In this document: positions 6,238-52,152 of the stretch, piece by piece
Layout: each line of letters begins with the position of its first letter
How positions within the stretch are numbered: the first letter of the stretch is position 1
Source: Candidatus Woesearchaeota archaeon
GTDB lineage: Archaea; Nanobdellota; Nanobdellia; Woesearchaeales; JAGLXL01
Direction: 5' to 3'
DNA length: 64,000 bases
Assembly (NCBI GenBank): GCA_030640025.1
Contig: DAOWKC010000002.1
Coordinates: 360,119-424,118 of the forward strand
Program-made: the position numbers and the translations under genes
Notes under the pieces: generated by a model
Told to the model about the DNA's origin: nothing
Databases searched by the model: none
The model's input: only the letters and a program-made list of their open reading frames with translations

Positions 6238-6453
6238 ATGGGCAAAAAGAGGAAAAAAGAGGGTGGAGAAGCACTTATTTCTATTCCTACCTCTATATTT
6301 CAAGACCGTGAATTGAGTGTTCTTGAGGCAATTACTGAATATTTGAAAGAAAAGAAAGGAATGCGGTATAGTGAGATTGCTAAACTTCTGAATAGAGACG
6401 ATCGAACCATTTGGACATCGTATAATCGGGCTAAGGCTAAAAGGAAAAAATGA
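6238..6453 (+). CDS. small HTH protein (sigma70 region 4 / HTH_10-like), leader of the giant-protein operon
   Basis: LSVLEAITEYLKE...YSEIAKLLNRDDRTIWTSYNRAKAKRKK. About 45% identity to both HTH repeats of the 60471..61106 protein. Stop overlaps the start of the giant ORF (ATGA). Confidence 0.55.
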   Translation: MGKKRKKEGGEALISIPTSIFQDRELSVLEAITEYLKEKKGMRYSEIAKLLNRDDRTIWTSYNRAKAKRKK

Positions 6454-12400: not shown

Positions 12401-15400
12401 GCCTGATGACGGAGGTGCTACTTTTAGGACAATTGCCTCTAGAACAAGAGTATATGATGATGCTAATACAGTTTGGTATTTGGTTTATGCTGAAAACGAC
12501 GGGAAACTTTATTTTGCTGTTGGGAACGGCGCTTCAAGAATACAGTCTTTGAACAGCTTTACAGCTCCGGATTCAAACTGGCAGCATATAGCTGGTGTTT
12601 ACAATGGTTCGCATACGCTGCTTTATATAAACGGCTCTTTGATAAATGTGTCGAGTTCAACAGTCAGCAGCATAAAGAGTACAAATAATAATATTTTAAT
12701 TGGAGAAGATAGTGGCAGGCCTTGGAACGGTACGATTGATGAATTGATAATTTTCAATCGTTCTTTGTCAGCAGAACAAATCAAAGTGTTGTATGAAAAT
12801 AGGACAGATTTAATTGTTTCACAAGAAACTGCTGTTGATGATGTATGGCAGGCATGTATAACACCAAATGACGGAACAGATGACGGGACTGAGAATTGCA
12901 GTAATGATTTGACAGTTATTAATAATATTCCAACCCAAGGCAGACCGATTTTGAATTCGACTGACCCCCACACAAATAGCACTGATCAAAATTTGACTGT
13001 TTATAATCAATCAACTGATGATGCTGATGAGGATGCAGTCAAGAATATCATTAATTGGTATAAAGATAATACTTCATTTACTATGTTGAATATGCCTTTT
13101 GAAGGCGGTTTGCTGGCTGAAGGAGAGACAAAAGTTAAAGATTATTCTCAGTTTGGTAATAATGGAACAGTAACAGAAGCAATTTATCAAGGGTCAGGTG
13201 GTTATGATGGAAAGGGAGCTTATTGGTTTGATGGAAGCAATGATTACATTGACTGCGGAGCTGATAATAGTGTCAATCAGACTGAGGAGATGACGCTGAG
13301 TGCCTGGATAAAATATGATGCAGTGACTGACAATTATGGTGCACTGATGGCTAAGTCAGACGGAGCAGGAATCACTGCTGGATGGAGGCTCCATTGGAAT
13401 AATGCCAATCCTGAATTGAGATTCTTACTAGCTTTGGCCAGTGGAAATAAAGCAATAACCAGTCCAAGTTTAACAGCAAGTACATGGTATCATGTGGCAA
13501 CTACCTTTAATGGTACTGGGATGGCAATTTATGTTAATGGGACATTGGTAAGCAGCACAAGTTTTGCTGCGACAACAATTAAGCCAGCAACCAATGCCTT
13601 AAGGATTGGGGCTGATAATCAGGATTTGAATTTCAAAGGAACGATTGATGAGGCGATGATTTTTAATCATTCGTTAAGTGCTGAACAAATCCAGGTTTTG
13701 TACCAGAACAGGACAGATTTAATTGTTTCCCAAGAAACTTCTATTGAAGATGTTTGGAAAGCCTGTCTGACACCAAATGACGGAACTGTTGACGGAGTTG
13801 AGAATTGCAGTAATGATTTGACTGTTTTGAGAGATTATGCACTTTGTGGAGATACTTTGCAGGCAAACAACCGGTATGTATTGAAGAATGATACTTCAAG
13901 TACAGGAACCTGTTTTACAATCCCTGGCGACAATATTGAAATTGACTGCCGGGGATACAAAATCACTGGACCAGGGGGTACAGGCGTTTCCTATGCAATC
14001 TATTCAGCAGCTGCCAGGACTAATTTAACTCTCAAGAACTGCTGGATTGAGGATTTTAACCGTGGAGTTTATCGTGATTTTGTAAATTCAAAGTTCATTA
14101 ACAACACTTTCAACTACACTCGTACTTGTGGCATTCATCTTAGGTCAGCTAGTAGCTATCTTAATATCAGTGGAAACACTTTTATTGATACAGGAAAAAC
14201 CTCGCCAGCCAACAGCAATGCTGGTTCTTACTCAATCTTTCTTGACAGTGCTGATAACGTTGATATCTATCACAATACTTTCACCCGCGGCCTTGGCTCT
14301 GAAATTTACTTCAATGGCGCCAGCACCAACAGGAATATCAAACATAATTATGTTGACAAAGATAATATCAACAATGAGATCTTTTATTTTTTAACAGTTA
14401 CTGGTTCAGCTACTGTTGAAAACAATACTTTTGTCAATGTTGGAGCTGGTTGGGCTTATTATCTCACAAGTGTTAACACACTCATTACCTTTGTTGGCAC
14501 TAATCTGGTTGATGGGGAAAACGCCAGCAATTATTTTGTTTATAACAGAAATAACACCATCATTGAAAATCTAAATCATAACGGCTCAGAAAGAGTTCTT
14601 AACTGGGGTAATTTTGTTGCTTATAATTGTGATAATCTGACTGTCAGGAACAATAATTTCACCAATCATCATAGCTATTCCAACATGTACCTGCGTAGTG
14701 TAGATAATTCTGACATTTACAATAACAACATCATCAATAGAACCACCGGGGGTACTTACAACTTTCATATCTATCACTGTGATAATTTAAATATTTTCAG
14801 CAATGAAATAAAAGATACCCAAGCTGATGGATTGAAATTAGACACCTGTAGTGGAGCTCAGATATATGATAATAATATTTCAGCTAGTACATCCAGTGGT
14901 AGTTATGCCTTTGATATGTACAGCACCGCTGCTGGTCATGGCCATGCGGTTATTAAAAATAATAATATCTCAGGCGGATCTTACTCAGCATATTTTGCCG
15001 GGACTAGCTCAACTGCCTTGACCAATGTCTCTTTTTTTAATAATTCAATCTCTGGTATGGGGTCCACCGGAATCCATCTTAATGCAGGTATGATTGATGT
15101 TTCTAACAACACCATCACTTGTCCAAATAATCATCAAGGCATCCACCTCGTTAGTGCCACTGGCAACCACACTGTCTTTGGAAATCAAATCAATAATTGT
15201 CGATATGGCCTTGCTCTGCAAAGAGGAGAATCAAGAATCCAGAATAATACTATCACAACCAGAACAGCCACACCAACACAAACTTGGGGAGTTCATGTTC
15301 AAAATGTTGATAACCATCTCTTGAATGTCAATCTTACCAGGGACAACACTGTTGATGGCAAGGCTGTGCCTTATTATTTCAAAGAATCTGCTGCCAGCAT

Positions 15401-18400
15401 CTCTGATCAGAACATTAATTTAACCAAATTAATCAGCACTGGGATAACTTTAATTGGTTCTAATGATATGGTTATTGATAACAATAACATCACTGGCAAT
15501 GATGCAACTATTGGTGGTGCAGGCATAACCTTGTTATATTCTAATTATACCAACATCACCCATAATAATTTCCATGATTTTAACTATGCAATTAACCTAC
15601 CTTACTACCTTGATCAATCAGAAAGAGCTTATATTGCCCATAATTATTTCAATAGCTCGAAGTATGGAATATATTTCTCCGTTAATGTCCAATATAAAGT
15701 TAATTATACCATTTTCAATAATACTTTTTATCAAATAGGTACCAATCCAATTTATAGGTACTGTTCCGCAACTGCACCACACAGAAACAGCCGGATGAAC
15801 ATAACTGGTAACCTGTTTAATTATTCAGCATCACGAGATATGCATTTAGGTAATTGTGTTAATAATACCATAGAAGGCAATAGGTTTGATTATACAGGCA
15901 CTCAAAGTATATACTTTTATAATGCTGACCAGAACACCATCAAAAACAATAATTTCACTAATATTAGAACTGATGGAACAAGCGCTTATTATATATACAT
16001 ACAAAGTGGAAGTAGTAACAATAATATAACTGGCAATCGCTTTACTGGTTCTCCTGGTTATCCTTATTATGGTTTAGGAGTAGATTCGTCTAATAACAAC
16101 CATGTCTCTGGAAATTATTTCAATAACTCTAGATATGCTATTTACTATTTTAACACTGCCAGCGGCAACCCCACTTATAACAATGAGATATATAGTTCTA
16201 CCACAGCCGGTTTCAGAGTTGCCAATGCCAATAACCAGAATATTTACAACAACACAGTTTGTTATAACAAACAAGCTGTTTCATTCACCAATGCAGCTTA
16301 TAATCTCAGCACAGTTGGCTGGCATAACAACTTGATGTGCGTCAATTCCATTATCCCAGAAAACGGCACTACCATCCAGGACACCACCCCGGAAATCTTC
16401 TTCCACATTTCCAACTTGATGGATCAATCTTCAACCAATTGTTCTGCTGTTATCAATGGTGTTGAAAATGGTTATAATGATACTATGGGAGCAGACGGTC
16501 AAAACCAAACTATCCAAGTTTCAAATGCTTTGGCAAGCGGAGAAAACTTCCTCCAAATCAACTGCACTGATGATTATAATGATACTTTGGTATTCCATAA
16601 TATTTCATTCAATGTCCCAATAACATGTAGTGATATTGCTGATGATATTATCATGTTTGCAAATATATCTGCTGATTTGAGAGTTTGCTTTAATATAACA
16701 ACAAATAATATCACAATTGACTGTGATGGTTACACTTTAATCGGCAATGGTTCAGTTGGAATACAAGCAAATGGTTATGACGGATTGACAATTAAGAATT
16801 GTGTGTTTGAGAATTTTACACAAGACATTATTTTTGACAATTCAGATAATGGAACAGTTGAAAATACAGATGTTATTATTAATATTACAAATTCAGAGAA
16901 TGCAGTGGTCAATCTTTCTGATGTTGACTGGCTGTACATCACTAATTCAACAAATGTTCGGGTTGTTGATTCAATTGTGAGAAATTATACTTTTGCTAAT
17001 GCAACTTTCTTTATGATGGAAAACAGCACTTATGGACAGCTTAAGTTCTTAAAGAATGTTTCTGGTATTGGAACCAATCTGTTTGTAAATTCCAGTTCAG
17101 ATATTGTTTGGGAGAGCTTGAGTGTAGGAGTGAATTCAGTTAATCAGCCAGCCTTTAATATTTCAGCAAATGTTTCCTTGTATAATGTACTGCAAATCCT
17201 GCCGCAGCTATATGTTAATATCAGCGGCAACTGGACTTTGTGTAATGAAACAACCAGTCCGTCATGTTATAATTTGAGTTATGCGAACCAAGTTTACATC
17301 TTTAATGTTTCACACTTTACATCATTTATATCAAAGGAATTTGCTGGTTTGATACAGAATTTTAGCTGGCCAGCACATCTGCCAAGAGCAGGCTATGAAG
17401 GAACAATAATATTGATTGACATAGATAAGAATGGAACCAGGGATTTACATATAACCGGCAGTCTTGATACAGTAACTTATTATAATGAAGTTCACCTTAA
17501 TACTGGTGATAATTTTTCTAAGGACACTTCCTTGAGCGGTGATTTGAAAGGAGTGTCTTACAGCGGAGCTGCCTGGGGTGATTATAACAGAGATGGTTAT
17601 TCTGATTTGGTCTATTGCGGTAAGAATGCAACTCATGTTATGACTGAAGCCTTGACAAGTGCAGATGGGAAAGTTTTGAACCGGGATATTCCAAGCATAG
17701 GCAATCTGACTGATGTGGCTTATTGTTCTGTGGTCTTTGGGGATGTGGATGTTGACGGTGATTTGGATTTGGCCCTGCAAGGACAGATTGATCCAACAGC
17801 AGCAGTTTGTGAAGTTTACACTAATAATGATGGAGTCTTTAATTTGAATGTAACTTTATCAAGCAATTGCACTGGAAAATATGATGGTGAATTGAAGTTT
17901 GTTGATGTGAACAATGACAGCTTTGTTGATTTGTTGAGCATAGGTGTTACTTTAGCTGGAACTCCTTTGATTGAGGTTATGATTAATGGCAATGGCAACA
18001 AGTTAGAGCTCAATACATCATATTATAATCTGCTTAATTTAAGCAAAGCAACTTTGAATTATGGAGATATGGACAATGATGGTCTAAGAGATATAATTTA
18101 TCATGGAACAGAGGCAGGAGGGGGAAGTTCACGAACAGTTTGGTATAAGAATACTGGTTCGGGTTTTACTGAGGTAGGTAATCATGACATGAAGAATTTA
18201 ACCCAAGGAGCAATTTGTATTGTTGATTTTAATAATGACGGCTGGAGAGATGTTTATATGTCTGGAAATGAATTGGCATCAGGGAATTATCATGCAGATG
18301 TTTATTTGAATAATGGAGATGGAAGCGGGTTGTTTAAAAGTTATCAATACAGTATTAATTTATCGGCAGGGTTTAGAAGTGCTTGTGCTACGGCTGATGT

Positions 18401-19319
18401 TGAGAATGCGTCACATGCTGATTTAGTAGCAACTTGGGGCAGTGGAGGACCTGATAATTTTGTGGGTGGATGGAATGGTAATCCTGATACTTGGGTTGTG
18501 CCGGATAATGCCAGGCCGACTGCAGTAGGACCGCCAAATGTTGAGGCTAATGATATGGGTGGAGGAATGATGGAGATAACGATGGATTCAGGAGATGGTG
18601 ATGATGACGTGCCGCCGAGGGATGAGGACAATGGAGATGTGGTTGGTTATGATGCAAAAGACATTGTATCTGGAGATATATTAATTTCAAATGAACCAGG
18701 ACAAGTAGCATCGCCTGGTTCTTATGACATGACCTACCCAGCTAAAGCAAGCACTGCTATACTAAGAACAAGTATCACCAATGTGGTTGATGTTAGTTGG
18801 TGGGATTTGGACGAAGGTTATGAACTAAGTGATATATCAGATACTACAACAGTTTGGATAGCTGATGTGTTTGAGGTAGTGGGCAGTCTGGCTGCAATAA
18901 TTGTTGGAGATGATTGTTATCTTTCAACAGATAATACCACACTAGGATCTCATACTATCCCTTGTTCTAATCTTGGTAACTGGTCGACATTAAATCTGTC
19001 AATCACGCCAAGGACACCTTATAATTTAACTGTTCATTGTACAAAGAATATAACTGCAGAGTTTGGTGATGGAACTGAGAATAATAATTATATTGGGAAA
19101 GTCCAGAATACATCTTACACAGGTAACAGAACAATTATTGCTGATGCCTGGGTTTTAGCAAATTATAATGCTTCTTCCTTGTATCCGATTATGTTAGTCC
19201 AGAATGGCACTTTTACTGGCACTAACCATAATTATACTATTGAAGTTGGCAAGGAATTAGATGTTTTAACACCCGTTGGAAATTATAATAATACCATTGT
19301 CTTTACAGTTTGGGTATAA
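6450..19319 (+). CDS. giant surface protein (4289 aa). Contents: signal anchor, NET/PEP-rich stalk, two FG-GAP beta-propeller blocks, 3x LamG/ConA-like, long right-handed beta-helix.
   Basis: TM at aa 93-115. FG-GAP repeats (DVNGDGHADAIVGS, DLDNDGYDDILIGA, etc.) at about nt 8400-9560 and 17400-18300. LamG_3-like modules (LTLEAWIK...GTIDEVRIYNRTLSAEQV) repeated three times between nt 11090 and 13850. PbH1-like NNxI repeats at about nt 13860-16900. Hundreds of N-x-S/T sequons. Confidence 0.9.
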   Translation: MIDSVLSGQRKEIHSLKNKIKRAVGDKEILARQEACIEQSFENEKISFLEHRQLLNRCRQLDNSYNNLIAGWEKKIARIERGPAQKTSIKNILPVLILGLVAFVLVLSLLGGRGVLTGLFVSENTFVIEGEFRLDLNEFFEVGEGWSYYTSDAENMDVIILNQELVVTPEDGFVGENKVTVYASNGSDMIEEEIILEVAGGFGVGPAPEEVVEEPIVNETVEVVENVTIEPVENVTEPINETTELVVNETIAPEPEPEPVVEEPVNETVPEIIPEAVPETGMTVDSENKLKLDNKFIGKRTDDGEIELYFDLIEKTADKLILEFHHNSDKAENVYVSRGVLDKPVLQPGEKARFEIDLVEGIVSKFVLKAGVKKGFAVEAQYSEVFEIGKTIPVVSSNGNYTLIDRDDEKLNVEIVKDKGRIAIVGVVDEPRINSKIESVANADLTTEVAAVEPMTMERATITIPKTGKVDVIMECSEMDVENMVCLGEWQKTDIIFTDNGDTITFTVDHFSGYGGAELEVLNLQSYPTLEGNWTVEFTTTGTADLRITAVDGTTWSNINEDSVLRGGASGTQEGSPLRDLKFLEVRCGDSVLDYTWVDNSVLIENYYCNETGYETSKVLTTGKHTLKFEFGDDVDYAYNYVYSGGYDMTSQDNISWMGGQHAATGGYLGVTLDWADVNGDGHADAIVGSYYNNSGLGAVYLLYGPLERVTDVDISSKADAAWYGPSVDYVGTCIGTGDLDNDGYDDILIGAHAYDNDALDGRVNVIYGQAAAFSGTTDMDIAADATFTGNVEALGMACDCADINGDDYEDILMTSYGTGLSSDGITYLVYGQSTKFSGDTAVSNANASWTNAGSFGEAYIVRRAGDINSDGYDDFLIGEPAINNTYLYYGQGAKFSGAHTLSTSANATFATATTSDSCGWSVSSAGDFNADGYDDFLIAAPSTDGQELTDNGMVYFFYGGQGYPWSGTIAMSTTYNASFHGYSNTYMAGAPHETGANVYIGGALSYGDFNIDGYSDFLIGSYGADVGGHTDNGEVVLVYGRPAFSSVNGYEYSMDISAGEVNASFYGEVNTDRLRFVPTGMAEDVFYEHIMMGADGFDNGGGGSCPFLYVWDGTEFGFHVDIYPSGRLGSKIASGTLPPQPKDYYLISKESLTAADGKYQLRLVEERDEVDYLDQTELYVVEHTPNTEVVPELTGFNPKYKMKLYLLNETMVPISCITDTGENCTDKLAAQDYDFIGLGDREYLDWHYVELDFGNIPGDAALVFRGYSVWPLTPEGVARRSLFDKYAYIQIYNGTDWVNSSLYLPNPKEITRDAPLNFTGLSPNGNYKVRLHWVHNTFLDQIYMGTISDEEISITKLNITFANLTHHGTSHFSSYPPPLNSDYETANAIPSNYKYYDGNYTRYGDVLELLNKTDDKFAIFHAGDEIQLEWDAYNPTQDYDFMLYSYGYYKDRKAAINTPNMTEDVEPLPFHDMSNFPYPDNESYPDDEEHNNYRLTYNTRERIHGEDVTTSLPHSDEGKVYVMEGALNHPPAHDTPILNATSVDNLTLDDLIVYVQNVSDVENDSVTNITDWRKDGTSIAVLNMPFDTNDSLAVDDYSDYVNDGTVNGTTWTSSGILGGAYEFKRTNTDYIEITDDASLNLTGDITLEAWIKSDSIGVAQYIISKPLNDGMGNMRSYPYTLYLSQGKICMRVYIDGWSIYAAGSNNTVCSDNNVSEGTWSHVVGTYDNSTGLTSIYINGTVNKSAVRTTQDAGLTKATPVFIGSEISTLGVKGWSAFNGTIDEVRIYNRTLSAEQVAANYNNSDPKYDKIVSEETVVDDIWQACITPNDRTDDGITKCSNNLTILNTAPTQGRPILNSTDPSKNNTNQNLTVYNQSTSDDDDHAVKNIINWYKDGGSITEVHMPFEGGGNATHDEDGFTKDYSGHGNNGSTAGGITWSKTGGYDGKGAYEFDGINGQITIADDATLNVGDKITVMTWVKADTMPDDGGATFRTIASRTRVYDDANTVWYLVYAENDGKLYFAVGNGASRIQSLNSFTAPDSNWQHIAGVYNGSHTLLYINGSLINVSSSTVSSIKSTNNNILIGEDSGRPWNGTIDELIIFNRSLSAEQIKVLYENRTDLIVSQETAVDDVWQACITPNDGTDDGTENCSNDLTVINNIPTQGRPILNSTDPHTNSTDQNLTVYNQSTDDADEDAVKNIINWYKDNTSFTMLNMPFEGGLLAEGETKVKDYSQFGNNGTVTEAIYQGSGGYDGKGAYWFDGSNDYIDCGADNSVNQTEEMTLSAWIKYDAVTDNYGALMAKSDGAGITAGWRLHWNNANPELRFLLALASGNKAITSPSLTASTWYHVATTFNGTGMAIYVNGTLVSSTSFAATTIKPATNALRIGADNQDLNFKGTIDEAMIFNHSLSAEQIQVLYQNRTDLIVSQETSIEDVWKACLTPNDGTVDGVENCSNDLTVLRDYALCGDTLQANNRYVLKNDTSSTGTCFTIPGDNIEIDCRGYKITGPGGTGVSYAIYSAAARTNLTLKNCWIEDFNRGVYRDFVNSKFINNTFNYTRTCGIHLRSASSYLNISGNTFIDTGKTSPANSNAGSYSIFLDSADNVDIYHNTFTRGLGSEIYFNGASTNRNIKHNYVDKDNINNEIFYFLTVTGSATVENNTFVNVGAGWAYYLTSVNTLITFVGTNLVDGENASNYFVYNRNNTIIENLNHNGSERVLNWGNFVAYNCDNLTVRNNNFTNHHSYSNMYLRSVDNSDIYNNNIINRTTGGTYNFHIYHCDNLNIFSNEIKDTQADGLKLDTCSGAQIYDNNISASTSSGSYAFDMYSTAAGHGHAVIKNNNISGGSYSAYFAGTSSTALTNVSFFNNSISGMGSTGIHLNAGMIDVSNNTITCPNNHQGIHLVSATGNHTVFGNQINNCRYGLALQRGESRIQNNTITTRTATPTQTWGVHVQNVDNHLLNVNLTRDNTVDGKAVPYYFKESAASISDQNINLTKLISTGITLIGSNDMVIDNNNITGNDATIGGAGITLLYSNYTNITHNNFHDFNYAINLPYYLDQSERAYIAHNYFNSSKYGIYFSVNVQYKVNYTIFNNTFYQIGTNPIYRYCSATAPHRNSRMNITGNLFNYSASRDMHLGNCVNNTIEGNRFDYTGTQSIYFYNADQNTIKNNNFTNIRTDGTSAYYIYIQSGSSNNNITGNRFTGSPGYPYYGLGVDSSNNNHVSGNYFNNSRYAIYYFNTASGNPTYNNEIYSSTTAGFRVANANNQNIYNNTVCYNKQAVSFTNAAYNLSTVGWHNNLMCVNSIIPENGTTIQDTTPEIFFHISNLMDQSSTNCSAVINGVENGYNDTMGADGQNQTIQVSNALASGENFLQINCTDDYNDTLVFHNISFNVPITCSDIADDIIMFANISADLRVCFNITTNNITIDCDGYTLIGNGSVGIQANGYDGLTIKNCVFENFTQDIIFDNSDNGTVENTDVIINITNSENAVVNLSDVDWLYITNSTNVRVVDSIVRNYTFANATFFMMENSTYGQLKFLKNVSGIGTNLFVNSSSDIVWESLSVGVNSVNQPAFNISANVSLYNVLQILPQLYVNISGNWTLCNETTSPSCYNLSYANQVYIFNVSHFTSFISKEFAGLIQNFSWPAHLPRAGYEGTIILIDIDKNGTRDLHITGSLDTVTYYNEVHLNTGDNFSKDTSLSGDLKGVSYSGAAWGDYNRDGYSDLVYCGKNATHVMTEALTSADGKVLNRDIPSIGNLTDVAYCSVVFGDVDVDGDLDLALQGQIDPTAAVCEVYTNNDGVFNLNVTLSSNCTGKYDGELKFVDVNNDSFVDLLSIGVTLAGTPLIEVMINGNGNKLELNTSYYNLLNLSKATLNYGDMDNDGLRDIIYHGTEAGGGSSRTVWYKNTGSGFTEVGNHDMKNLTQGAICIVDFNNDGWRDVYMSGNELASGNYHADVYLNNGDGSGLFKSYQYSINLSAGFRSACATADVENASHADLVATWGSGGPDNFVGGWNGNPDTWVVPDNARPTAVGPPNVEANDMGGGMMEITMDSGDGDDDVPPRDEDNGDVVGYDAKDIVSGDILISNEPGQVASPGSYDMTYPAKASTAILRTSITNVVDVSWWDLDEGYELSDISDTTTVWIADVFEVVGSLAAIIVGDDCYLSTDNTTLGSHTIPCSNLGNWSTLNLSITPRTPYNLTVHCTKNITAEFGDGTENNNYIGKVQNTSYTGNRTIIADAWVLANYNASSLYPIMLVQNGTFTGTNHNYTIEVGKELDVLTPVGNYNNTIVFTVWV
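11090..13850 (+). repeat. intragenic tandem repeats (about 930-bp period, 3 copies, roughly 85% nt identity in cores) encoding LamG/ConA-like modules of the giant protein
   Basis: Near-identical stretches around 11860-12130, 12790-13080 and 13690-13850. Antisense shadow ORFs 11849..12049 and 12623..12982 are mutually similar. Confidence 0.8.
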
Positions 19320-44685: not shown

Positions 44686-45443
44686 AAATGGTAGAAATTG
44701 AAAATCTTGAGGATTTGGCTTTTTTATTACCAAAAATCATTAAGGAAGGTGAAGAAAAATTAAAGGAAGCAAAAAAGAGCCCGGAAATATTGGTAAAATT
44801 GTTAGAGGAAGATCCTGTTTTTGATATTCCTTCAAGTAGTCATTATGGTCACTTGGAAAGTGAATTGGTTGTACGATTTGGAGTAATGGTGGGGGAAGAT
44901 CCCAAAAATCTGAGGAATCATTTTAATATACTTTTGGCTTGTAATCTGAATAAAGAAGGATACCTCTTACCAGATTTATCAAAAAATTATAAGGTATTCA
45001 AATGGGCAGGTAAAAGAGGACTTTATGATACTCTAATATCGTCTTTTAGAAAAAGTTTGCCAATGGGGATGCATGGTGGTGGCTGGAAACCAAGTACTTG
45101 TCATTCCCAGTTTGGAAGAGTGATTGGTCGAGTGGCTCATTTTGGAGGATATGAAAGAGGTAGTGTTGAATTCAAATCAAAAAAATTTCAGGAAGTTGAG
45201 AGAGAGGTAGCTAAGTTTCAACCAAAAAATTATAGAGAAGTTGAGGAAAATGAAGGTAAGCTTCCTTTAAAATTTATGATAGAACCAGCAATTGACTCAC
45301 CAACTAAATCTCTTGAATACTTTTTTTTGAAATTCAGAGCTGCTGACATGAATTGGGGAGATGGCGAATTTGTGGCTTTAGTTAGACATTTAGGTTTGGG
45401 CAGAGAAAAACCAGAATATACTTTTGAGTCTTTAAAGAAATGA
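44682..45443 (+). CDS. hypothetical protein, translationally coupled to the previous gene
   Basis: ATGA overlap. Confidence 0.45.
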   Translation: MKMVEIENLEDLAFLLPKIIKEGEEKLKEAKKSPEILVKLLEEDPVFDIPSSSHYGHLESELVVRFGVMVGEDPKNLRNHFNILLACNLNKEGYLLPDLSKNYKVFKWAGKRGLYDTLISSFRKSLPMGMHGGGWKPSTCHSQFGRVIGRVAHFGGYERGSVEFKSKKFQEVEREVAKFQPKNYREVEENEGKLPLKFMIEPAIDSPTKSLEYFFLKFRAADMNWGDGEFVALVRHLGLGREKPEYTFESLKK

Positions 45444-45543
45444 TTATTTCTTGATTATTGAATAAGGAATTAATTTATATTCTACATAATAGAAACATTT
45501 AAATATCAGTAAAGATATTATACAAGATATCAAAAGAGATATT

Positions 45544-45831
45544 GTGATAGATATGTTTAATATTGAATATCAAGGATTAAGAATAGAACCAACCTTACAT
45601 GCAACACGAGAATTGATTAAGGAAGGAAAAGATCTTTATGATGTTCTTAAAATATTATTAGAAGGTTATGATTGCGGTGCTTCAAAAAGAAAAGAAAATA
45701 TTATTGAAAGATGCCTGAGAAAAGGCGATAAAGAATTTAAAGCTGTCATTGCCAAAACAGAGTTGAGTTATCCGGATGGTTTTCAAGAGAGTGTTTGGCG
45801 ATTAATTCATTTTGGTAAAACTACTATATAA
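45544..45831 (+). CDS. possible DUF4258-like toxin
   Basis: IEPTLHATRELIKEG motif. Precedes a Zn-ribbon/AbrB gene in the same order as the 40141/39924 pair. Confidence 0.35.
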   Translation: MIDMFNIEYQGLRIEPTLHATRELIKEGKDLYDVLKILLEGYDCGASKRKENIIERCLRKGDKEFKAVIAKTELSYPDGFQESVWRLIHFGKTTI

Positions 45832-45873
45832 AAAACTAGTAAAGTTATATTATTCAAAAGAGGTGTAAAAAAA

Positions 45874-46215
45874 ATGGCAAAAGAAAAGATTAGAAAAGAT
45901 ACTTGGCAAGCTAGACATACTTGTACCCATTGTGAAATTCCGATGGAGAAAAAGAAAATAATAATTGAAGGAATAGAAATAAGGGGTTGGGAATGTTCGA
46001 AATGTAAAGAAACTGTTTTACATTCAGAAGATGCACAAAAAATGTTGTTTTTAAATAAATTGAAAAGGGGTATTAAAGTTAAAATTGGAGAATTAGGCCA
46101 ATCGTTGATTATTAGATTCCCAAAGGAAGTAGTGGATTTTTACAAAATTAAAAAAGGAGAAGACCTTACTTTAAGAGCAGAAGATATGAAAAGAATAGAA
46201 TTAGTTCCGGCATAA
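45874..46215 (+). CDS. YgiT-type zinc-ribbon plus AbrB-like domain protein (paralog of 39583..39924)
   Basis: CTHCEI...CSKCKE. C-terminal GQSLIIRFPKEVVDFYKIKKGEDLTL. Confidence 0.55.
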   Translation: MAKEKIRKDTWQARHTCTHCEIPMEKKKIIIEGIEIRGWECSKCKETVLHSEDAQKMLFLNKLKRGIKVKIGELGQSLIIRFPKEVVDFYKIKKGEDLTLRAEDMKRIELVPA

Positions 46216-46218
46216 ATT

Positions 46219-47313
46219 TTATTTCGTAATTATTTCTTTTTTAATTTTAATTCCGCGTTTGTCTATTTGATATAAGTAAGCTTCGCGAGGAACGTACTTT
46301 TCCTGTTCAAGAACACCCCTTTGAGTGATAGCACCAGAAGCAATCATTTGGGCAATGATGGAGACAGACCAGGCAGTGGTTTCAGCTGTGGCAGTGGTAT
46401 TAGTTTTGTCATTGTATTCATGGGCTATGGTGTAAGTAATTTCTGTTTTTTGACCGTCTTTTATTCCGCCGACAACAACTTTGACCAGGACAACATCTTT
46501 TTGGTTCTTAGGCAAAGTTTCTTTGAGATAATCTTCTAATTCGCTTTTGTCTGGAAAACGCTGGATTAATTTTTTTATTTCCTGGTAATGGCCAGGATAT
46601 CTCAAGGTTTTTTCAAACCATTCTTGGACTTGGCCTTCAAAAGTTCTGGTTAAGGTTGAACTCATGCCGGCAACATAATCAGCTTCCATTTCTCCAAATC
46701 CTGGAAAATTTATTTTTTCAAGACCAGAAAGGGCTTTGACGTGCTGGACTTTGCCGTCTTTGATGAGAGTAGAATATTTAGTGTATTCAGAAACTAAAAC
46801 TGCAAGAGAGAAAAGTTGAGTGTAATTTAAAGGTGGATTGGTGGGGTTTAAGGGAATAGCACCGACATAGTTGTGGATGTAATGTGTTATGTCTAACTGG
46901 CTGTCTCCATGACCATCTAAGATGTTGACTGTGCCAGGACAGATTCCGTTATCAGGCATGGCGATAATGCCAGCGTCTTTGGCTTTTTGATGAAGGGCAA
47001 GTTGTTTTTTTAAAGTATCTGGGTCAGCGCCTAAATCTGTATAGTTGCATTTGGCATCAATAGCTGCTTCAAGTCCAAGAAGATGATATTCAGGACGTGC
47101 AACAGCAGAAATTATGCCATCATAACCTCGCATTAATTTGACCAGATTGGCATGATCTCTGACATCAATTGGTTCAAATCCAATTCCTAATTTTTGGGCT
47201 GTAAGACGTTTTGCCGGGTCATAATCAGCAGCAGTAACTGCGCCATATTTCTTTAAATCTCTGGCAATCTCTTCGCCCATGAGACCAAGCCCTAAAAGTA
47301 AAAAACTATGCAT
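46219..47313 (-). CDS. saccharopine dehydrogenase family NAD(P)-dependent oxidoreductase
   Basis: N-terminal Rossmann LLGLGLMGEEIA and Sacchrp_dh-like core. Confidence 0.65.
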   Translation of the reverse strand: MHSFLLLGLGLMGEEIARDLKKYGAVTAADYDPAKRLTAQKLGIGFEPIDVRDHANLVKLMRGYDGIISAVARPEYHLLGLEAAIDAKCNYTDLGADPDTLKKQLALHQKAKDAGIIAMPDNGICPGTVNILDGHGDSQLDITHYIHNYVGAIPLNPTNPPLNYTQLFSLAVLVSEYTKYSTLIKDGKVQHVKALSGLEKINFPGFGEMEADYVAGMSSTLTRTFEGQVQEWFEKTLRYPGHYQEIKKLIQRFPDKSELEDYLKETLPKNQKDVVLVKVVVGGIKDGQKTEITYTIAHEYNDKTNTTATAETTAWSVSIIAQMIASGAITQRGVLEQEKYVPREAYLYQIDKRGIKIKKEIITK

Positions 47314-47473
47314 TTTCTAGAATTTTTTAACAGAACTGGTATTTAACTTTTGTGTATATAGACTATCTATTTTGAATTTTGAAGTAAGGTTGAGTATTAG
47401 TTGAGTTTAATTTGTGTTAAATTCTTTGCCGGTTACGAGCGAAGTGGAGTTCTGGCAAACTTAGTCCTAAGAG

Positions 47474-47490
47474 TTCAAAAATAGGCACTT
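47474..47490. repeat. left arm of a perfect 17-bp inverted repeat (TTCAAAAATAGGCACTT)
   Basis: Reverse complement found at 47841..47857. The arms bracket ORF 47519..47833. Confidence 0.75.
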
Positions 47491-47518
47491 TTAAATAATT
47501 TCTAATATTAATTATTAT

Positions 47519-47833
47519 ATGAAAATAAAAATTAGATATAATCATTGGCTACCTAGATTATTAAAAATAAATGGAATAACCCTTTACCCTTATATTTGCA
47601 TAAAATATTCTGAATCAATATCTTTTAAAAAAAGAATTATTCATCATGAATGGATACATATTATTCAAGTAAGGAAAGATGGTTTCTTTAGATTTTATTT
47701 TAAATGGCTAATTGAGCTACTGATAAATTTTCTTAAGTATAAAAATTATAATAAAGCATATAAAAACATTTCATATGAAGCTGAAGCTTACAAAAAGATG
47801 TTTAAAATAAAAATACCGAAAAAATTAGAGTAA
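47519..47833 (+). CDS. small HExxH protein (DUF4157-like HEWIHIIQ motif), flanked by a 17-bp inverted repeat
   Basis: IIHHEWIHIIQ fits the HE[LW]xH[VI]xQ signature of DUF4157 metallopeptidase-like domains. Confidence 0.45.
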   Translation: MKIKIRYNHWLPRLLKINGITLYPYICIKYSESISFKKRIIHHEWIHIIQVRKDGFFRFYFKWLIELLINFLKYKNYNKAYKNISYEAEAYKKMFKIKIPKKLE

Positions 47834-47840
47834 TTTAACT

Positions 47841-47857
47841 AAGTGCCTATTTTTGAA
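47841..47857. repeat. right arm of the 17-bp inverted repeat, directly abutting a TTGAGTTTAAT direct repeat
   Basis: AAGTGCCTATTTTTGAA. Confidence 0.75.
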
Positions 47858-48047
47858 TTGAGTTTAATTGCTGTTATATTCGTTTTTGCGAACAGAGCTG
47901 GAGCGACCGTATGGGAGCGACCTCGTGAGCAAAAACCAAAACAATTTAAATTCGAAGATGTGAGCGAAGCGAACACCTGAGAATATTAAATTTTTTGAGT
48001 CGCGGAGGGACACACAGTCCAATTAAGCTCGAAGAGCACTAAAGGAC

Positions 48048-49762
48048 AAGAAGTTAAGGGGACACACTCAACACAATATTAAGAATCGGGGGCTTTATAG
48101 AATTATTTATATATTGGTTAAATTATTTATTATCTAATGGACCTAAATAGATTGATTAAGAGGATTGAAAAATATATCGGTAGAAATTTGAAGCTTTCTA
48201 TGAAAGAATTTAAACAATTACAAAAATTAAAAGAAAATGTTATACTAATAGAAGAACTTTTATCCCATCATAACTTAGGTAATTTACGTTATAAAGAACA
48301 TACAAAAAAATTGATAATATGTGTCGGAAGAATTGAAAGAAGGCTCAATGTTTGGATTATAAGATTAGAAAAACTACTTACTAAAGAAGAATATGAATTA
48401 TCCCCTAGAGACAGACAATATTTTGAATTATTTAAAAATAAATTAGATATTTGTAAAAACAACCTGATTAGAATTCTAGCTTGGAACGGAGAGTTACATC
48501 AAATCCTAAAAAAAAAAGGATTTCCGGAGTGGGACAAAATTATGGAGAAAGTTGATGAGGCATTTGGTAATAACAAGAATCCTGGGATAAATACATTAAT
48601 CATTTTATTTGAACAATTAGGGAAAGTAGAGGAACAATTACTCAAAAGAGTTAGTAAAGAAGACTGGTTGAAGATTATCAATGAAAAAATCGAAACAAAT
48701 GGAAATATTCTAGATAGAACAGATCTAAGTTTGAGAGTAGATTCATCAAGTTATTTGTCTGCCTTCTTTAGAATGCTAAGATTTCAAAAACATCGGGAAT
48801 GCCTAGTAAAATTTAATGTTAAGGAAAGAATAACATCTAAAGGAGTAAAAGCAAAGAATTGGCAAAGAGAATTATCAATAGCTATAGATGCAGGAGGATT
48901 TCAGGCACAATTTAGTGGTAGAGTTAATAATTTATATAAATCTTTTTTAAAAAGAAATAAAGGTAATAGGACCACAGCCTTAATTGGAATAGGCAGATTG
49001 ATAGGTGTAGCCTATGTAGCACTGAATGAATCCACATTTGAATACGTTAGAAGAGATTTAGCAAAATTAGAAGAAGGTCTTCAAAGTAGTGAATCTTCTC
49101 GTATCTCTTTTTCTGTTCAATATCTATCCTCACGATATGGTGGTCTTGTAGAATTCAAAAAATTCGCTAATAAAAAGGATTTTTCAGAAGAAGAAAAACA
49201 AGAACTTTCAAATATGGCAAAATCTTATAAATATATAATCGAAAATTTCGGATTTGATGTTGGAGGATATAGAAGAATAGTGCAAAATGAACAAGGATTA
49301 GTTTTTTCTGGGAGGGAATATAGGACAATAAAGAGGATTGTTGATGACCCAAAATCAATTTTAAGAAATCCAAAAGAAGTTTTATTAGTTTTATCCCAAG
49401 GTTTAGCTAGATATGATGCTTTCCACAGATTTAATTATGATATAGCAGTAATTATTAACAATAAGTATATATTCGGAGTGACCTATCAAGGTCCTTCAAA
49501 AGGGCACTGGGGTGATATTGATGATACAAATACACCAGATAAATTCAAAGAGGCGTATTTAGGAATTATTTGTTTAATTCATAATAATGCTTTTTATAGA
49601 AAAGTCATTAAGGAAATGCTAGCAGCAACAGTGGATAAACCAGAGTTAAGATTACCAATTTATAATGTCTTTGGAAAGGTTATATGGCCTTCGTAAAAGT
49701 GTAATTTTAGTCTAGCCCCCGATTCTATTAATTAAAACATAAAGTGCGAAGCACATTCTTGA
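48048..49762. mobile_element. candidate cassette bounded by composite inverted repeats, carrying only ORF 48137..49696
   Basis: Outer IR is GGGGACACACTCA (48048-48060) / TGAGTGTGTCCCC (49750-49762). Inner IR is AGAATCGGGGGC (48072-48083) / GCCCCCGATTCT (49705-49716). Extra GGGACACAC copies at 48007-48015 and, inverted, at 49794-49802. Confidence 0.45.
48137..49696 (+). CDS. hypothetical 519-aa protein carried inside an inverted-repeat-bounded cassette
   Basis: No recognisable catalytic motif. N-terminal GRIERR motif is shared with the 50989 protein. Confidence 0.5.
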   Translation: MDLNRLIKRIEKYIGRNLKLSMKEFKQLQKLKENVILIEELLSHHNLGNLRYKEHTKKLIICVGRIERRLNVWIIRLEKLLTKEEYELSPRDRQYFELFKNKLDICKNNLIRILAWNGELHQILKKKGFPEWDKIMEKVDEAFGNNKNPGINTLIILFEQLGKVEEQLLKRVSKEDWLKIINEKIETNGNILDRTDLSLRVDSSSYLSAFFRMLRFQKHRECLVKFNVKERITSKGVKAKNWQRELSIAIDAGGFQAQFSGRVNNLYKSFLKRNKGNRTTALIGIGRLIGVAYVALNESTFEYVRRDLAKLEEGLQSSESSRISFSVQYLSSRYGGLVEFKKFANKKDFSEEEKQELSNMAKSYKYIIENFGFDVGGYRRIVQNEQGLVFSGREYRTIKRIVDDPKSILRNPKEVLLVLSQGLARYDAFHRFNYDIAVIINNKYIFGVTYQGPSKGHWGDIDDTNTPDKFKEAYLGIICLIHNNAFYRKVIKEMLAATVDKPELRLPIYNVFGKVIWPS

Positions 49763-49829
49763 GTGTGTCCCCCTCTTATTTTTTTCTCTAAAAGTGTGTC
49801 CCGGAGCGATTGAGTTTAATGTCCTATAA

Positions 49830-49868
49830 CTCAAGTTCGCAGAATTTGAGGGTTATAGGTCTTTAAAC
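49830..49868 (-). terminator. hairpin CCTATAACTCAA...TTGAGGGTTATAGG just 3' of pgk
   Basis: Near-perfect 12-bp stem. Confidence 0.35.
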
Positions 49869-49900
49869 TCAGGAATTTTGATTACCATAAATGGATATTT

Positions 49901-50950
49901 TTATTTGAATTTCTTCTGGTTTTTTTCCAAGGCTTCAATGCCTGGGAGTTTTTTTCCTAATAAGAATTCTAGAGAGGCGCCGCCGCCAGTTGAAACCCAA
50001 GTCATTTTTTTGGTGAGTTTGTATTTATGGATAGCTTCGGCGCTTTCTCCGCCGCCAATGATTTTGACGGCCTTTCTTTTGGCAATGAAATTAGCGATTT
50101 GTTTTGTGCCCTTGGCGAATTTTGGTTTTTCAAACATGCCTAAGGGGCCGTTCCAGATAATGGTTTTGGCTTTTTTTAAGTATGATTTAAAGAGTTTGAT
50201 GGTTTTAGGTCCGATATCAAGGTGTCTGTTTTTTTTGTCTTTGGTGAAATCAACTGGGAGAATGATTTTTTTGTTTTTGATTTTGACGAGGTCGACAAGG
50301 CCAGAACCGACTAAAGCAAAGTTTGCTTTTTTGGCAATGGTTTTGAGGGCTTTGTACTTGTCTTCTTTGATACCACCAATCAGCCAGATTAGAGGTTTTT
50401 TTGGTTTGAGTGCTTTTTTGAGTTCTTTGATTTCTTTTTCAACCAAAAAGCCGGGTGCTGATGGAAGTAAGCTAGCTAAGGTATCAACCGAAGCATGCTT
50501 TCTGTGTAGGGTGGCAAAAGCATCATTGACATAATAATCTGCGTTTTTAGATAGTTCTAAAGCAAAATTTTTGTTGTTGTTTTCTTCTTCAGAATAAAAT
50601 CTAAGATTTTCTAATAAAACAACTTCTCCAGGAACCATTTTGTCGATAAAGCGATCAACTTCAGGGCCGATGCAGTCATTTAGTTTGTAAACATTTTTCT
50701 TGAGGAATTTTTTGAGTTCTTTGTAAACAGGATCAAGTTTTAATTCAGGAACAATTTTGCCTTTTGGTTTGCCTAGATGTGTTATTAAAATAACCATGGC
50801 TTTTTTTTTGATTAAGTATTCAATAGTAGGCAATGCTGTTTTGATTCTGGAATTGTCTTTGACCTTGCCTTTTTTGTCCAAAGGAACATTAAAGTCAACC
50901 CTAACCAAAACGTATTTGTTTTTGAATTTGAATTTTTTTAAGGAGTTCAT
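49901..50950 (-). CDS. pgk: phosphoglycerate kinase (bacterial type)
   Basis: RVDFNVP, YVNDAFATLHR and STGGGASLEFL motifs. Confidence 0.85.
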   Translation of the reverse strand: MNSLKKFKFKNKYVLVRVDFNVPLDKKGKVKDNSRIKTALPTIEYLIKKKAMVILITHLGKPKGKIVPELKLDPVYKELKKFLKKNVYKLNDCIGPEVDRFIDKMVPGEVVLLENLRFYSEEENNNKNFALELSKNADYYVNDAFATLHRKHASVDTLASLLPSAPGFLVEKEIKELKKALKPKKPLIWLIGGIKEDKYKALKTIAKKANFALVGSGLVDLVKIKNKKIILPVDFTKDKKNRHLDIGPKTIKLFKSYLKKAKTIIWNGPLGMFEKPKFAKGTKQIANFIAKRKAVKIIGGGESAEAIHKYKLTKKMTWVSTGGGASLEFLLGKKLPGIEALEKNQKKFK

Positions 50951-50988: not shown

Positions 50989-52152
50989 ATGGAGATAAGA
51001 TTTATATATCTCCTTAGTTTTATTTTATTTATGGCCAAGAAGCTAACTAATGAGATTAAACACGCTCTTAACTGGTTGGCTGCTGAGTTTAAATTCTTGA
51101 AGAAGTTGGATGAGGATCTTGGCAATATTGGAAAAGAAAAATTAGAACAGCAAGAAAAGGATTTAAAAAAAGACCGCAGAGTTGTTCGTTATATTGGAAG
51201 GGCTGAAAGAAGAGTAGAAGGAGATATTAAAGAGATTACCCAAGAATTAGAAACAGCAAAAAAAGAAACACTTACACAAGAAAAATTTGACGATTTACTT
51301 AAAGAAATTGAAGTTCCTGCCCACCAATTACTTAAAGAAGGTTCTTTATATGTTGGTAATTTGAGAAAGCAATTAAATACAATTCTAATAGATGTTCAAT
51401 TAGGGATAAAATATCCTAAAAAAGAATTGAGAGCAATAGTTCAGAAGAAAATTGATGATTTGGAGTCAGAAGCTCAAGATATTGAAAAGTGGATTGCTGC
51501 CTTAGATGCAGCACTAAAGAAAGCAGCCTCAATTTTTGATGGGGAAAACATAGCGAAAGCATTATTTACCTTGGCTAGGGATTCATTTGACAGAAAAGAG
51601 ATTGAAAAGAAACTAAAACAAATCTCAACAACTTTTGAGAATTTAGAAGAATCAACAGGATGGAATGAAATAAAATCTATAAATGGTTATAAAAAGCAAA
51701 AACAAAAAGTCAGTGAAGTATATCCTATTTTAAGAGATACTATTTATTCACTAATTCCAATTTATGATGAAGTTATTAATGAATTCAAAAATTGCAAGGA
51801 TAAAATTGATAATGCTTGTGAAATTATTAATCAAAAAGATTTTAAAGTAGATGATATTTTGAAATTAAGAGAACAAGCAGGCATTCTTCAACATACATTT
51901 TACTTGGAATTAGAACTTCTTCTTACTTCAAAATTATGGTGTAAGTCAATTACTTGGGATGTAAAAATGAGCCCCCAGTGGGAGTTTCAGAGAGAGATAA
52001 TTCTTAGAGAGAAGGGCGACAGATATATCGAGAGCGCCAGAGATTTCGCAGAAACCACTCGTAATTTTTATACTAAAACAGCAAAAAGAGGTATTTCTAT
52101 TCTTGATCATATTAATTTTTTGTTTGAAAAAGTTTTTGCTTTATTGAAATAA
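50989..52152 (+). CDS. hypothetical helical protein
   Basis: YIGRAERRVEGDI motif resembles CVGRIERRLNVWI of the 48137 ORF. Confidence 0.45.
   Translation: MEIRFIYLLSFILFMAKKLTNEIKHALNWLAAEFKFLKKLDEDLGNIGKEKLEQQEKDLKKDRRVVRYIGRAERRVEGDIKEITQELETAKKETLTQEKFDDLLKEIEVPAHQLLKEGSLYVGNLRKQLNTILIDVQLGIKYPKKELRAIVQKKIDDLESEAQDIEKWIAALDAALKKAASIFDGENIAKALFTLARDSFDRKEIEKKLKQISTTFENLEESTGWNEIKSINGYKKQKQKVSEVYPILRDTIYSLIPIYDEVINEFKNCKDKIDNACEIINQKDFKVDDILKLREQAGILQHTFYLELELLLTSKLWCKSITWDVKMSPQWEFQREIILREKGDRYIESARDFAETTRNFYTKTAKRGISILDHINFLFEKVFALLK

Follow-up and report, generated by a model that had tools for sequence, protein, structure and literature searches.

The DNA considered here is a stretch of 64,000 nucleotides (nt) from a Candidatus Woesearchaeota archaeon, hereafter called the window, and its region from 47.4 to 49.9 kb is probably a two-cassette array belonging to a site-specific-recombination gene-cassette system of DPANN (Nanoarchaeota/Woesearchaeota-type) archaea. 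DPANN archaea, whose genomes are tiny, are dependent on hosts, and little is understood of how accessory genes are gained and exchanged by them. In the array, single open reading frames (ORFs) are enclosed by inverted repeats (IRs) and separated by direct copies of a site that resembles dif, the substrate of the XerA recombinase. All coordinates are positions in the window and all claims are computational. The 2.5-kb gap between a saccharopine-dehydrogenase-like gene and pgk, to which an earlier note on this DNA had drawn attention, is indeed present: the segment 47314-49900 holds no housekeeping gene and lies between the dehydrogenase-like gene (46219-47313, minus strand) and pgk (49901-50950, minus strand). 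The locus is chromosomal, its neighbours being glycolysis and rRNA-methylase genes. The same note had likened the organisation to successive integrations into a duplicated att-like site or to a small integron-like array, a proposal that is supported by the type of site, by arrays at other loci, by homology breakpoints and by alternative alleles.

The direct repeat TTGAGTTTAAT had been reported before the first cassette (A), between A and the second cassette (B), and after B. Three exact copies were found at these places (47401, 47858 and 49810) and no other in the window. The repeat is however longer than the 11 bp that had been recognised, which represent the left arm of a 28-bp site starting at 47400, 47857 and 49809. 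The first and second copies show 85% identity across 27 nt, and the third has the left arm alone in common with them. The site, called the core in the following, is composed of an 11-bp arm, a 6-bp spacer and a second 11-bp arm that together form an imperfect dyad, and its consensus is ATTGArTwTAA / TCnnTG / TTAwAyTCCCC.

Related sites were collected in two scans, and the loci obtained are designated here by an L followed by a number. A scan of one genome per species with a 24-nt consensus gave two real intergenic matches, L018 (a Woesearchaeota assembly) and L020, besides one chance match in a bacterial gene. A metagenome scan with free spacer positions returned 85 loci, about 25 of which are true family members, recognised by a TnnnTG spacer and a following GC-rich segment CC..GAAG, neither of which was demanded by the scan pattern. 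A position weight matrix (PWM) was built from the related sites at other loci and applied to both strands of the window (127,714 positions). It singled out the first two copies (scores in the table), the next best position reaching 0.3. Across 34 distinct sites, A1 T2 T3 G4, T9 A10 A11, T16 G17, T18 T19 A20 and C25 were found to be invariant or nearly so. Scans of viral contigs for carriers of the core gave only chance matches inside a phage gene and no match to the IRs.

The motif TAA-N6-TTA has been described as the most conserved feature of archaeal dif (PMC11840125), and it was found in the 11-6-11 register in window sites 1 and 2 and in 34 of the 34 family instances. The dif site of Pyrococcus abyssi, which was validated in vitro, reads ATTGGATATAATCGGCCTTATATCTAAA, i.e. 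ATTGGATATAA/TCGGCC/TTATATCTAAA (PMC2958812). In the same register the commonest family variant, ATTGAATATAATCGCTGTTAWAYTCCCC, is identical to it at 19 of 28 positions and window site 2 at 16 of 28; on this scale, Pyrococcus dif and the bacterial consensus agree at 14 of 28 (PMC2958812). The dif site of Thermococcus kodakarensis, validated by chromatin immunoprecipitation, is TTTTGATATAA/TGTACC/TTATATGACAA (PMC11840125), and its inner arms TATAA and TTATAT are common to the family site. At the level of sequence, the direct repeat is thus supported as a recombination-type site resembling the XerA substrate dif.

The limits of the exchanged unit can be seen in loci that have a cassette in common. 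L061 and L093 carry a 101-nt unit, and L076 and L093 a 112-nt unit, each of them 100% identical between the two loci. In both cases identity runs from the first base of the spacer to 2 nt into the next spacer, and the flanks and the upstream left arms differ. In the same way, window cassette A is about 98% identical at the nucleotide level, over 372 nt, to L006, which comes from another sample. The L006 match stops right after the left arm ATTGA(G/A)TTTAA, beyond which a different gene is found. Since the breakpoints lie at the junction of left arm and spacer, the exchanged unit would extend from a spacer through the next left arm. None of them is more than 2 nt away from that junction, which, as far as alignments can tell, is the pattern expected of a tyrosine recombinase exchanging strands at the spacer border. 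The IRs lie inside this unit and were rejected as the ends of the element.

The repeats are not unique to this locus, a possibility that the earlier note had seen as speaking against mobility, as the same site forms arrays at ten or more other DPANN-like loci (at least ten). Arrays of 2-6 sites in the same orientation, spaced by 90-1200 bp, were observed at L018/L076, L061/L077, L093, L072, L053, L040, L060, L036, L074 and L110. Their intervals contain one ORF, on either strand, or none, and the cassettes measure 64-1952 bp. The cargo includes methyltransferases, an APH-like (aminoglycoside phosphotransferase-like) kinase, a histidine phosphatase and proteins of no known function. Each interval follows the same grammar, in which the core is followed by a closed GC-rich hairpin (the module), the left arm of the IR, the ORF and the right arm of the IR, which abuts the next core. 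A second, inverted core about 85 nt downstream of a canonical one was seen in L068 (reverse complement, about 592-700), and it is the sole inverted pair observed.

The modules are of recurring types that are common to cassettes with unrelated cargo, and the same right arm plus module is likewise found with unrelated cargo. The stem of the type I module shows three compensatory columns and a conserved AGTGCAACG bulge; for type II, whose alignment was too poor, no pairs were obtained in the consensus fold. In the window, module 1 was judged by eye to be like the modules L076_7106 and L061_1940, and module 2 is related to L076_7983, L093_3142 and L074_7051 (GCGAC..GTATGACGCAGG), with mini-hairpins of the GCGAAGC type on its 3' side, at about 47950-48050. 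Such C-GAA-G mini-hairpins (GCGAAGC, GCTCGAAGAGC, GTGCGAAGCAC) are abundant in the non-coding segments 47428-48136 and 49697-49900 as well as in modules of L053, L072, L076 and other loci, and a GTGCAACG motif in an asymmetric bulge is common to many modules. CGAAG is 11-fold enriched in the non-coding parts of the array region, and the three occurrences of GGAGCGA in the window all fall within that region.

The IRs obey a rule of their own. Among 19 ORF-bearing cassettes, 17-18 have a 9-16-bp IR with a right arm that runs up to the very base preceding the next core; the offset is exactly 0 in 16, and shuffled controls gave far lower counts. The left arm lies 38-97 nt past the previous core in most cassettes and farther in window cassette B and in one L093 cassette, and empty cassettes of 64-84 nt have no IR. 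The arm sequences differ from cassette to cassette, and what is kept is their pairing and their position beside the core. In the window, the perfect 17-bp IR that had been described around the ORF of cassette A was confirmed, and the composite GC-rich IR of cassette B was resolved into three nested IRs, the innermost matching at 13 of 13 positions, the middle one at 14 of 14 and the outermost at 81%. GGGACACAC is present in four exact copies, all at the cassette B region and none elsewhere in the 64 kb. Because the 17-bp IR and the outermost IR of cassette B follow the rule, they are a feature of the family and neither transposon ends nor terminators; the terminator hairpins of flanking genes that the earlier note had considered are also at odds with arms that enclose whole ORFs.

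A candidate for the enzyme was found beside other arrays. At three independent loci, L076, L061 and L036, a tyrosine recombinase gene of 268-274 aa lies directly downstream of the last site and reads in the direction of the sites. Identity is 92.6% between the L076 and L061 proteins, and the L036 protein is 58-59% identical to each. They contain a Phage_integrase domain and a SAM-like N-terminal domain, and among solved structures P. abyssi XerA (4a8e) matches them best. In haloarchaea, xerA is known to lie next to dif (PMC11840125). Upstream of the XerA-like gene in L076 (8880-9060), L061 and L036, a conserved non-coding block of about 230 nt was also observed, which holds a degenerate core, for instance ATTGAATATAA/CAACAT/ATATACGCATT in L036. 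It could be the primary site of the platform or a regulatory region. Homology between this block and the terminal region of the window array was tried as well and proved weak, with 6 of 300 shuffles reaching the L076 score and no signal for L061.

The array occupies a position whose content varies among relatives. Contigs in which pgk is 77-83% identical keep the order RsmB, GAPDH, PGK, a variable segment, a 417-aa gene and Rpr2. In L017 there is no spacer and pgk abuts the 417/430-aa gene, and in L014 a single 90-aa ORF is present. L010 contains three other genes and a degenerate site directly after the stop of the 417-aa gene. Finally, L110 has a strong core (30.4) with a type I module directly after the stop of its 418-aa gene, followed by two different cassettes and a terminal site. 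The alternative alleles that were sought were thus found, relatives carrying other cassettes (L110) or none (L017) at the pgk flank. In base composition the cargo ORFs of the window look foreign, their GC content being 20-30%, compared with about 40% for the flanking genes and 42-45% for the spacers that carry the repeats.

Comparison with L110 also bears on the last site of the window. From the last four bases of its left arm (TTAA) rightwards, site 3 aligns with the L110 pgk flank together with the hairpin 49811-49871, a structure that may also serve at the 3' end of pgk. To the left of TTAA the DNA is unrelated to L110 and the left arm differs. As the right part is conserved in L110, the right half of the site is chromosomal, and site 3 thus joins a cassette-derived left arm to a chromosomal right half, which is what integration into a chromosomal site should leave behind. 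At about 47-50 kb the coding strand switches, 88% of the coding bases being on the plus strand left of the array and about 84% on the minus strand to its right, and GC skew, which is uninformative at the scale of the window, shows no clear inversion. The strand switch is suggestive in that it is compatible with the location of a terminus or of dif, of which it is no proof.

These observations could be accounted for by a mechanism in which a XerA-type recombinase, encoded outside the window, acts as the catalyst in the source genome and brings about recombination between the core of a circular cassette and one of the cores in the array, strands being exchanged at the left-arm side of the spacer. 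The tandem array would arise from successive insertions, and cassettes would be excised or shuffled when adjacent cores recombine. Each insertion would add one hybrid site, so that the last site would keep a cassette-derived left arm and the chromosomal right half, as in site 3. In the excised circle, the IR arms would flank the core and the module (IR-dif-IR), the whole forming one compact structure as part of an extended recombination site. This role of the IRs is the least certain step, and together with the role of the module it is the weakest part of the model. A similar layout is reported for the dif sites of Thermococcales, which have inverted repeats on either side (PMC2958812). Circle junctions that were reconstructed and folded as single-stranded DNA (ssDNA) gave closed multi-branch folds with z = -6.2 and -7.7, the latter for cassette B. 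TATA-like boxes are located just inside the left IR arms, so that the mRNAs probably lack that arm, which would argue against an RNA-level role of the IRs. A folded ssDNA substrate, as with integron attC and the CTX phage, is possible in view of the many d(GCGAAGC)-type mini-hairpins and of the strong folding predicted here for the circle junctions.

Taken a step further, the system would be an integron-analogous gene-capture platform of DPANN archaea that relies on the housekeeping XerA/dif pair. Promiscuous single-gene cassettes made of a dif-like core, a conserved hairpin module and a cassette-specific stem, which may be called 'mini-IMEX' after the integrative mobile elements exploiting Xer (IMEX), would be taken up, released and reshuffled at one fixed chromosomal position, which may be the dif of the chromosome itself. 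This wider interpretation is put forward tentatively, with slightly more doubt than confidence.

Several points weigh against the recombination interpretation. The recombinase gene is adjacent to only 3 of about 8 arrays with enough flanking sequence, and its best NCBIfam model, recomb_XerA_Arch, was matched with 207-216 bits, just below the cut-off of 220. No xerA homologue was found by tblastn in the 64-kb window, so that the enzyme acting on its array would have to lie elsewhere, which the earlier note had seen as one possibility; this is plausible with a XerA-like gene beside three other arrays. All related loci come from metagenomic contigs, and L018 alone bears a taxonomic label. Neither L014 nor L017 has a site at the pgk-flanking locus, which leaves the arrival of the first site unexplained, and degenerate sequences are seen at site 3, at the L010 site and at the second site of L110. 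A dif site is normally single-copy, and directly repeated active sites are expected to be unstable. Several direct copies are nevertheless found per locus, and their activity must therefore somehow be restrained. Finally, a TATA-like sequence (TTTAAT/ATATAA) in the left arm precedes the GC-rich module by about 22-27 nt, which makes a promoter role possible.

This last point is the starting place of a different and rather unlikely explanation, in which the 28-bp unit would act as a strong promoter of archaeal type, whose left arm holds the transcription factor B recognition element and TATA box (BRE/TATA) and which drives small structured RNAs, namely the GC-rich modules. The TATA-like hexamer is indeed found at 22-27 nt upstream of every module start, the modules form closed hairpins with the compensatory columns and AGTGCAACG bulge of the type I stem, and module types recur independently of cargo. 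A promoter does not account for homology that starts and stops exactly at the junction of left arm and spacer, for right IR arms that abut the unit, for the adjacent XerA-like gene or for the in-register match to validated dif sites. Moreover, about 20 of 28 positions are near-invariant across distant contigs, beyond the usual conservation of promoters, and no Rfam family was matched in the window or in the related loci (gathering and E-value modes). One unit could nevertheless serve both as promoter and as recombination site. Split tRNAs and known RNA genes interrupted by giant introns with ORFs were rejected on the same Rfam result and on an ARAGORN search of the window and the related loci that was likewise empty, and no bulge-helix-bulge geometry was seen by eye.

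Tandem single-gene cassettes also call to mind a fragment of a canonical integron, that is, a cluster of attC sites lacking integron-integrases (CALIN) on whose folded attC sites IntI would act. The box G/TTAAAC or G/TTAAAT at the junction of spacer and right arm fits the attC core GTTRRRY, CALINs have been reported in archaeal metagenome-assembled genomes and integrons in Nanoarchaeota (PMC9668308), and the array-adjacent recombinases partially match the integron-integrase model. The match to that model (TIGR02249) is nevertheless made of two stretches and reaches 199-208 bits against a cut-off of 265, below the score of these 268-274-aa proteins on the XerA model, and PRK15417 gave 131-134 bits against 435. 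The site itself is a simple 11-6-11 core and not an R''-L''...L'-R' palindrome, and inspection of the junctions revealed no R''/R' pairing. The IRs enclose ORFs instead of lying between them, and the ORFs are on either strand. A canonical integron is therefore highly improbable here.

The perfect 17-bp arms around ORF A, the GGGACACAC copies at both ends of cassette B, which recall subterminal transposase-binding sites, and the low GC content of the cargo might evoke transposons or miniature inverted-repeat transposable elements (MITEs), the direct repeats being target-site duplications or a preferred target. This possibility had been raised in the earlier note and was not borne out. The arms differ in sequence in every cassette of the family, only their pairing and position being kept, and copies of the IRs were sought in the window and the fetched loci and found only in L006, which carries the same cassette A. 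The left direct repeat is 62-115 nt away from the left IR arm, so there is no target-site duplication. No transposase was found, and the exchange unit ends at the core and not at the IRs, which leaves this explanation with even less probability than an integron fragment. Least credible of all are ordinary intergenic structures, i.e. terminator hairpins of flanking genes together with repeats that arose by chance where AT-rich DNA surrounds two orphan genes: the window does contain many chance IRs of 17-27 nt, TTGAGTTTAAT with one mismatch allowed is not enriched in it, and the hairpin at 49811-49871, which belongs to the conserved flank of pgk, may be a pgk 3' structure, but the IR arms are 350-1780 nt apart around whole ORFs, PWM specificity is high and the family recurs with the same grammar in tens of independent contigs. 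The IR rule, the PWM scores and the homology breakpoints already contradict this explanation.

The two cargo proteins of the window were considered, and rejected, as mobilising enzymes. In agreement with the earlier statement that neither resembles a transposase, ORF A and ORF B gave no Pfam or PADLOC match, and neither is a recombinase. A search with the 519-aa ORF B among 1.84 billion representatives recovered 65 relatives, most of which have only the N-terminal 170-190 residues in common with it and which sit in ordinary contexts without sites. ORF A and ORF B are thus passengers and not mobilisers. In the ORF B family, a conserved N-terminal domain of about 175 aa, for the most part helical, is fused to many unrelated C-terminal regions in proteins of 140-1234 aa, which makes the architecture polymorphic and modular, and the structure model of ORF B, with a predicted confidence (pLDDT) of 41, is unusable.

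ORF A belongs to a small family with an invariant HEWIH (HExxH) motif that was observed in at least three contexts, and its structure model (pLDDT 72) matched no fold in the PDB. In L005 (10001-10315; Woesearchaeota B3_Woes), a copy 88% identical to ORF A lies between unrelated genes, with a decayed remnant of the right IR arm alone and no core site, and it may be a fossilised cassette. Another homologue, 54% identical, was found in L109 (1317-1631), on a contig without core sites whose genes need TGA as a sense codon. This suggests a recoded bacterial lineage, and the HEWIH family therefore seems to cross domains.

The features of the array are listed in the table.

Table. Features of the cassette array in the window (positions 47,400 to 49,871)
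Feature	Coordinates	Strand	Description
Core site 1 (array-proximal)	47400..47427	+	11-6-11 dif-like: GTTGAGTTTAA/TTTGTG/TTAAATTCTTT; PWM 32.2; near-identical to the L018 and L020 sites; TAA-N6-TTA
Cassette A, putative exchange unit, 457 bp	47411..47867	+	From site 1 spacer to site 2 left arm; L006 match and breakpoints
Module 1	47425..47459	+	Closed GC-rich hairpin TTTGCCGG...CTGGCAAA, predicted fold; CGAAGTGGAGT..GCAAC like 'type II'
Left arm, cassette A IR (TTCAAAAATAGGCACTT)	47474..47490	+	Perfect 17-bp IR; obeys the family-wide rule
ORF A, 104 aa, cargo	47519..47833	+	HEWIH motif invariant in the family; no Pfam/PADLOC match
Right arm, cassette A IR	47841..47857	+	Adjoins core site 2, one base in common; offset 0; kept in L006
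Core site 2	47857..47884	+	ATTGAGTTTAA/TTGCTG/TTATATTCGTT; PWM 36.0
Cassette B, putative exchange unit, 1952 bp	47868..49819	+	By analogy with breakpoints elsewhere; left-arm spacing 1952
Module 2 ('type III')	47882..47936	+	Hairpin GTTTTTGC...GCAAAAAC containing GGAGCGACCGTATGGGAGCGACC
Left arms, cassette B composite IR	48000..48094	+	48000-48015, 48058-48071, 48082-48094
ORF B, 519 aa, cargo	48137..49696	+	Conserved N-terminal domain of about 175 aa, variable C-terminus; no Pfam/PADLOC match
Right arms, cassette B composite IR	49714..49809	+	49714-49726, 49759-49772, 49794-49809; outermost arm adjoins core site 3
Terminal site 3	49809..49836	+	Left arm ATTGAGTTTAA, canonical; spacer TGTCCT and right arm ATAACTCAAGT, both non-canonical
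Hairpin in pgk 3' flank, includes terminal site	49811..49871	.	20-nt arms, 90% complementary; conserved in L110

The surroundings of the array also show lineage-specific content. A 387-aa ORF on the plus strand (50989-52152) separates GAPDH from PGK, with no core site or IR visible at its borders. As GAPDH and PGK overlap by 4 nt in the relatives L010, L014 and L017, this ORF is a second lineage-specific insertion beside the array; its paralogy with ORF B was not significant (E = 0.17). On the other side, 44686-47313 contains four genes that are absent from the relatives, encoding proteins of 253 aa and 95 aa, a 113-aa zinc-ribbon plus MazE/AbrB-like protein and the saccharopine-dehydrogenase-like protein, and no remnants of sites were seen in this block. 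Farther away, a single ORF of 4289 aa (6450-19319) is typical of the giant surface proteins of DPANN and of the candidate phyla radiation (CPR).

No account of arrays of dif-like sites bounding cassettes in archaea, nor of an archaeal IMEX, was found in the literature searched, and a 2021 review of archaeal tyrosine recombinases describes dif as single-copy and does not mention IMEX. The array would thus apparently represent an integron-like gene-capture system of DPANN archaea that is not yet described. If true, it would provide these organisms, and perhaps other archaea, with an integron-like route of horizontal gene transfer that draws on the universal XerA/dif machinery and needs no dedicated integrase, and it would give archaea a first counterpart of the IMEX and dif modules of bacteria. 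As integron integrases are relatives of Xer and the crossover box is GTTRRRY-like, the system also bears on the origin of integrons. In addition, the 28-bp core with its module can be searched for as a marker of hypervariable loci and of candidate dif sites among uncultured archaea, and the pair of site and recombinase could become a genetic tool.

Among known systems, archaeal XerA/dif (P. abyssi, T. kodakarensis, Thermoplasma acidophilum) shares the 28-bp 11-6-11 site with TAA-N6-TTA. The window site likewise lies between converging genes at a switch of coding strand, and xerA is adjacent in some of the array loci. Unlike the sites described here, dif is single-copy and not tied to cassettes, whereas 2-6 or more direct copies, each with an adjacent conserved hairpin module, here bound variable genes. 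The IMEX of bacteria (the CTX, TLC and VGJ phages and the gonococcal genetic island) resemble the present cassettes in having no integrase of their own, in using a dif-type site, in forming same-orientation arrays with hybrid sites and in keeping one chromosomal half-site at the end of the array, integration being presumed in the present case. They differ in being of phage or island size with replication, morphogenesis or transfer genes, whereas the archaeal units measure 0.1-2 kb and carry 0-1 gene.

Integrons (IntI, attI and attC; for archaea, Ghaly et al. 2022) have in common with the system a fixed platform with promiscuous single-gene cassettes whose content differs between relatives, a GTTRRRY-like crossover box, a Xer-related tyrosine recombinase beside the array and structured, cassette-specific palindromic DNA. 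In contrast to IntI, the recombinase has no IntI-specific domain or score, and the core is of a simple double-strand type and not a folded attC. An integron attC is an imperfect palindrome of 55-140 nt between ORFs, whereas here a 28-bp core is accompanied by a separate hairpin and by long-range IRs that pair across the ORF; a palindrome split by integration would thus come to enclose the ORF. The ORFs are moreover on either strand, apparently with their own TATA boxes. Finally, the pdif/dif modules of Acinetobacter plasmids (XerC/XerD) are likewise small, carry accessory genes between 28-bp Xer sites and are shuffled among replicons. Their sites alternate (C/D then D/C) and are plasmid-borne and bacterial, in contrast to the direct repeats on an archaeal chromosome found here. 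In all, the sites of the system have the sequence features that define Xer/dif sites and depart from that definition in copy number, and the system falls outside what defines an integron, an IMEX or a pdif module.

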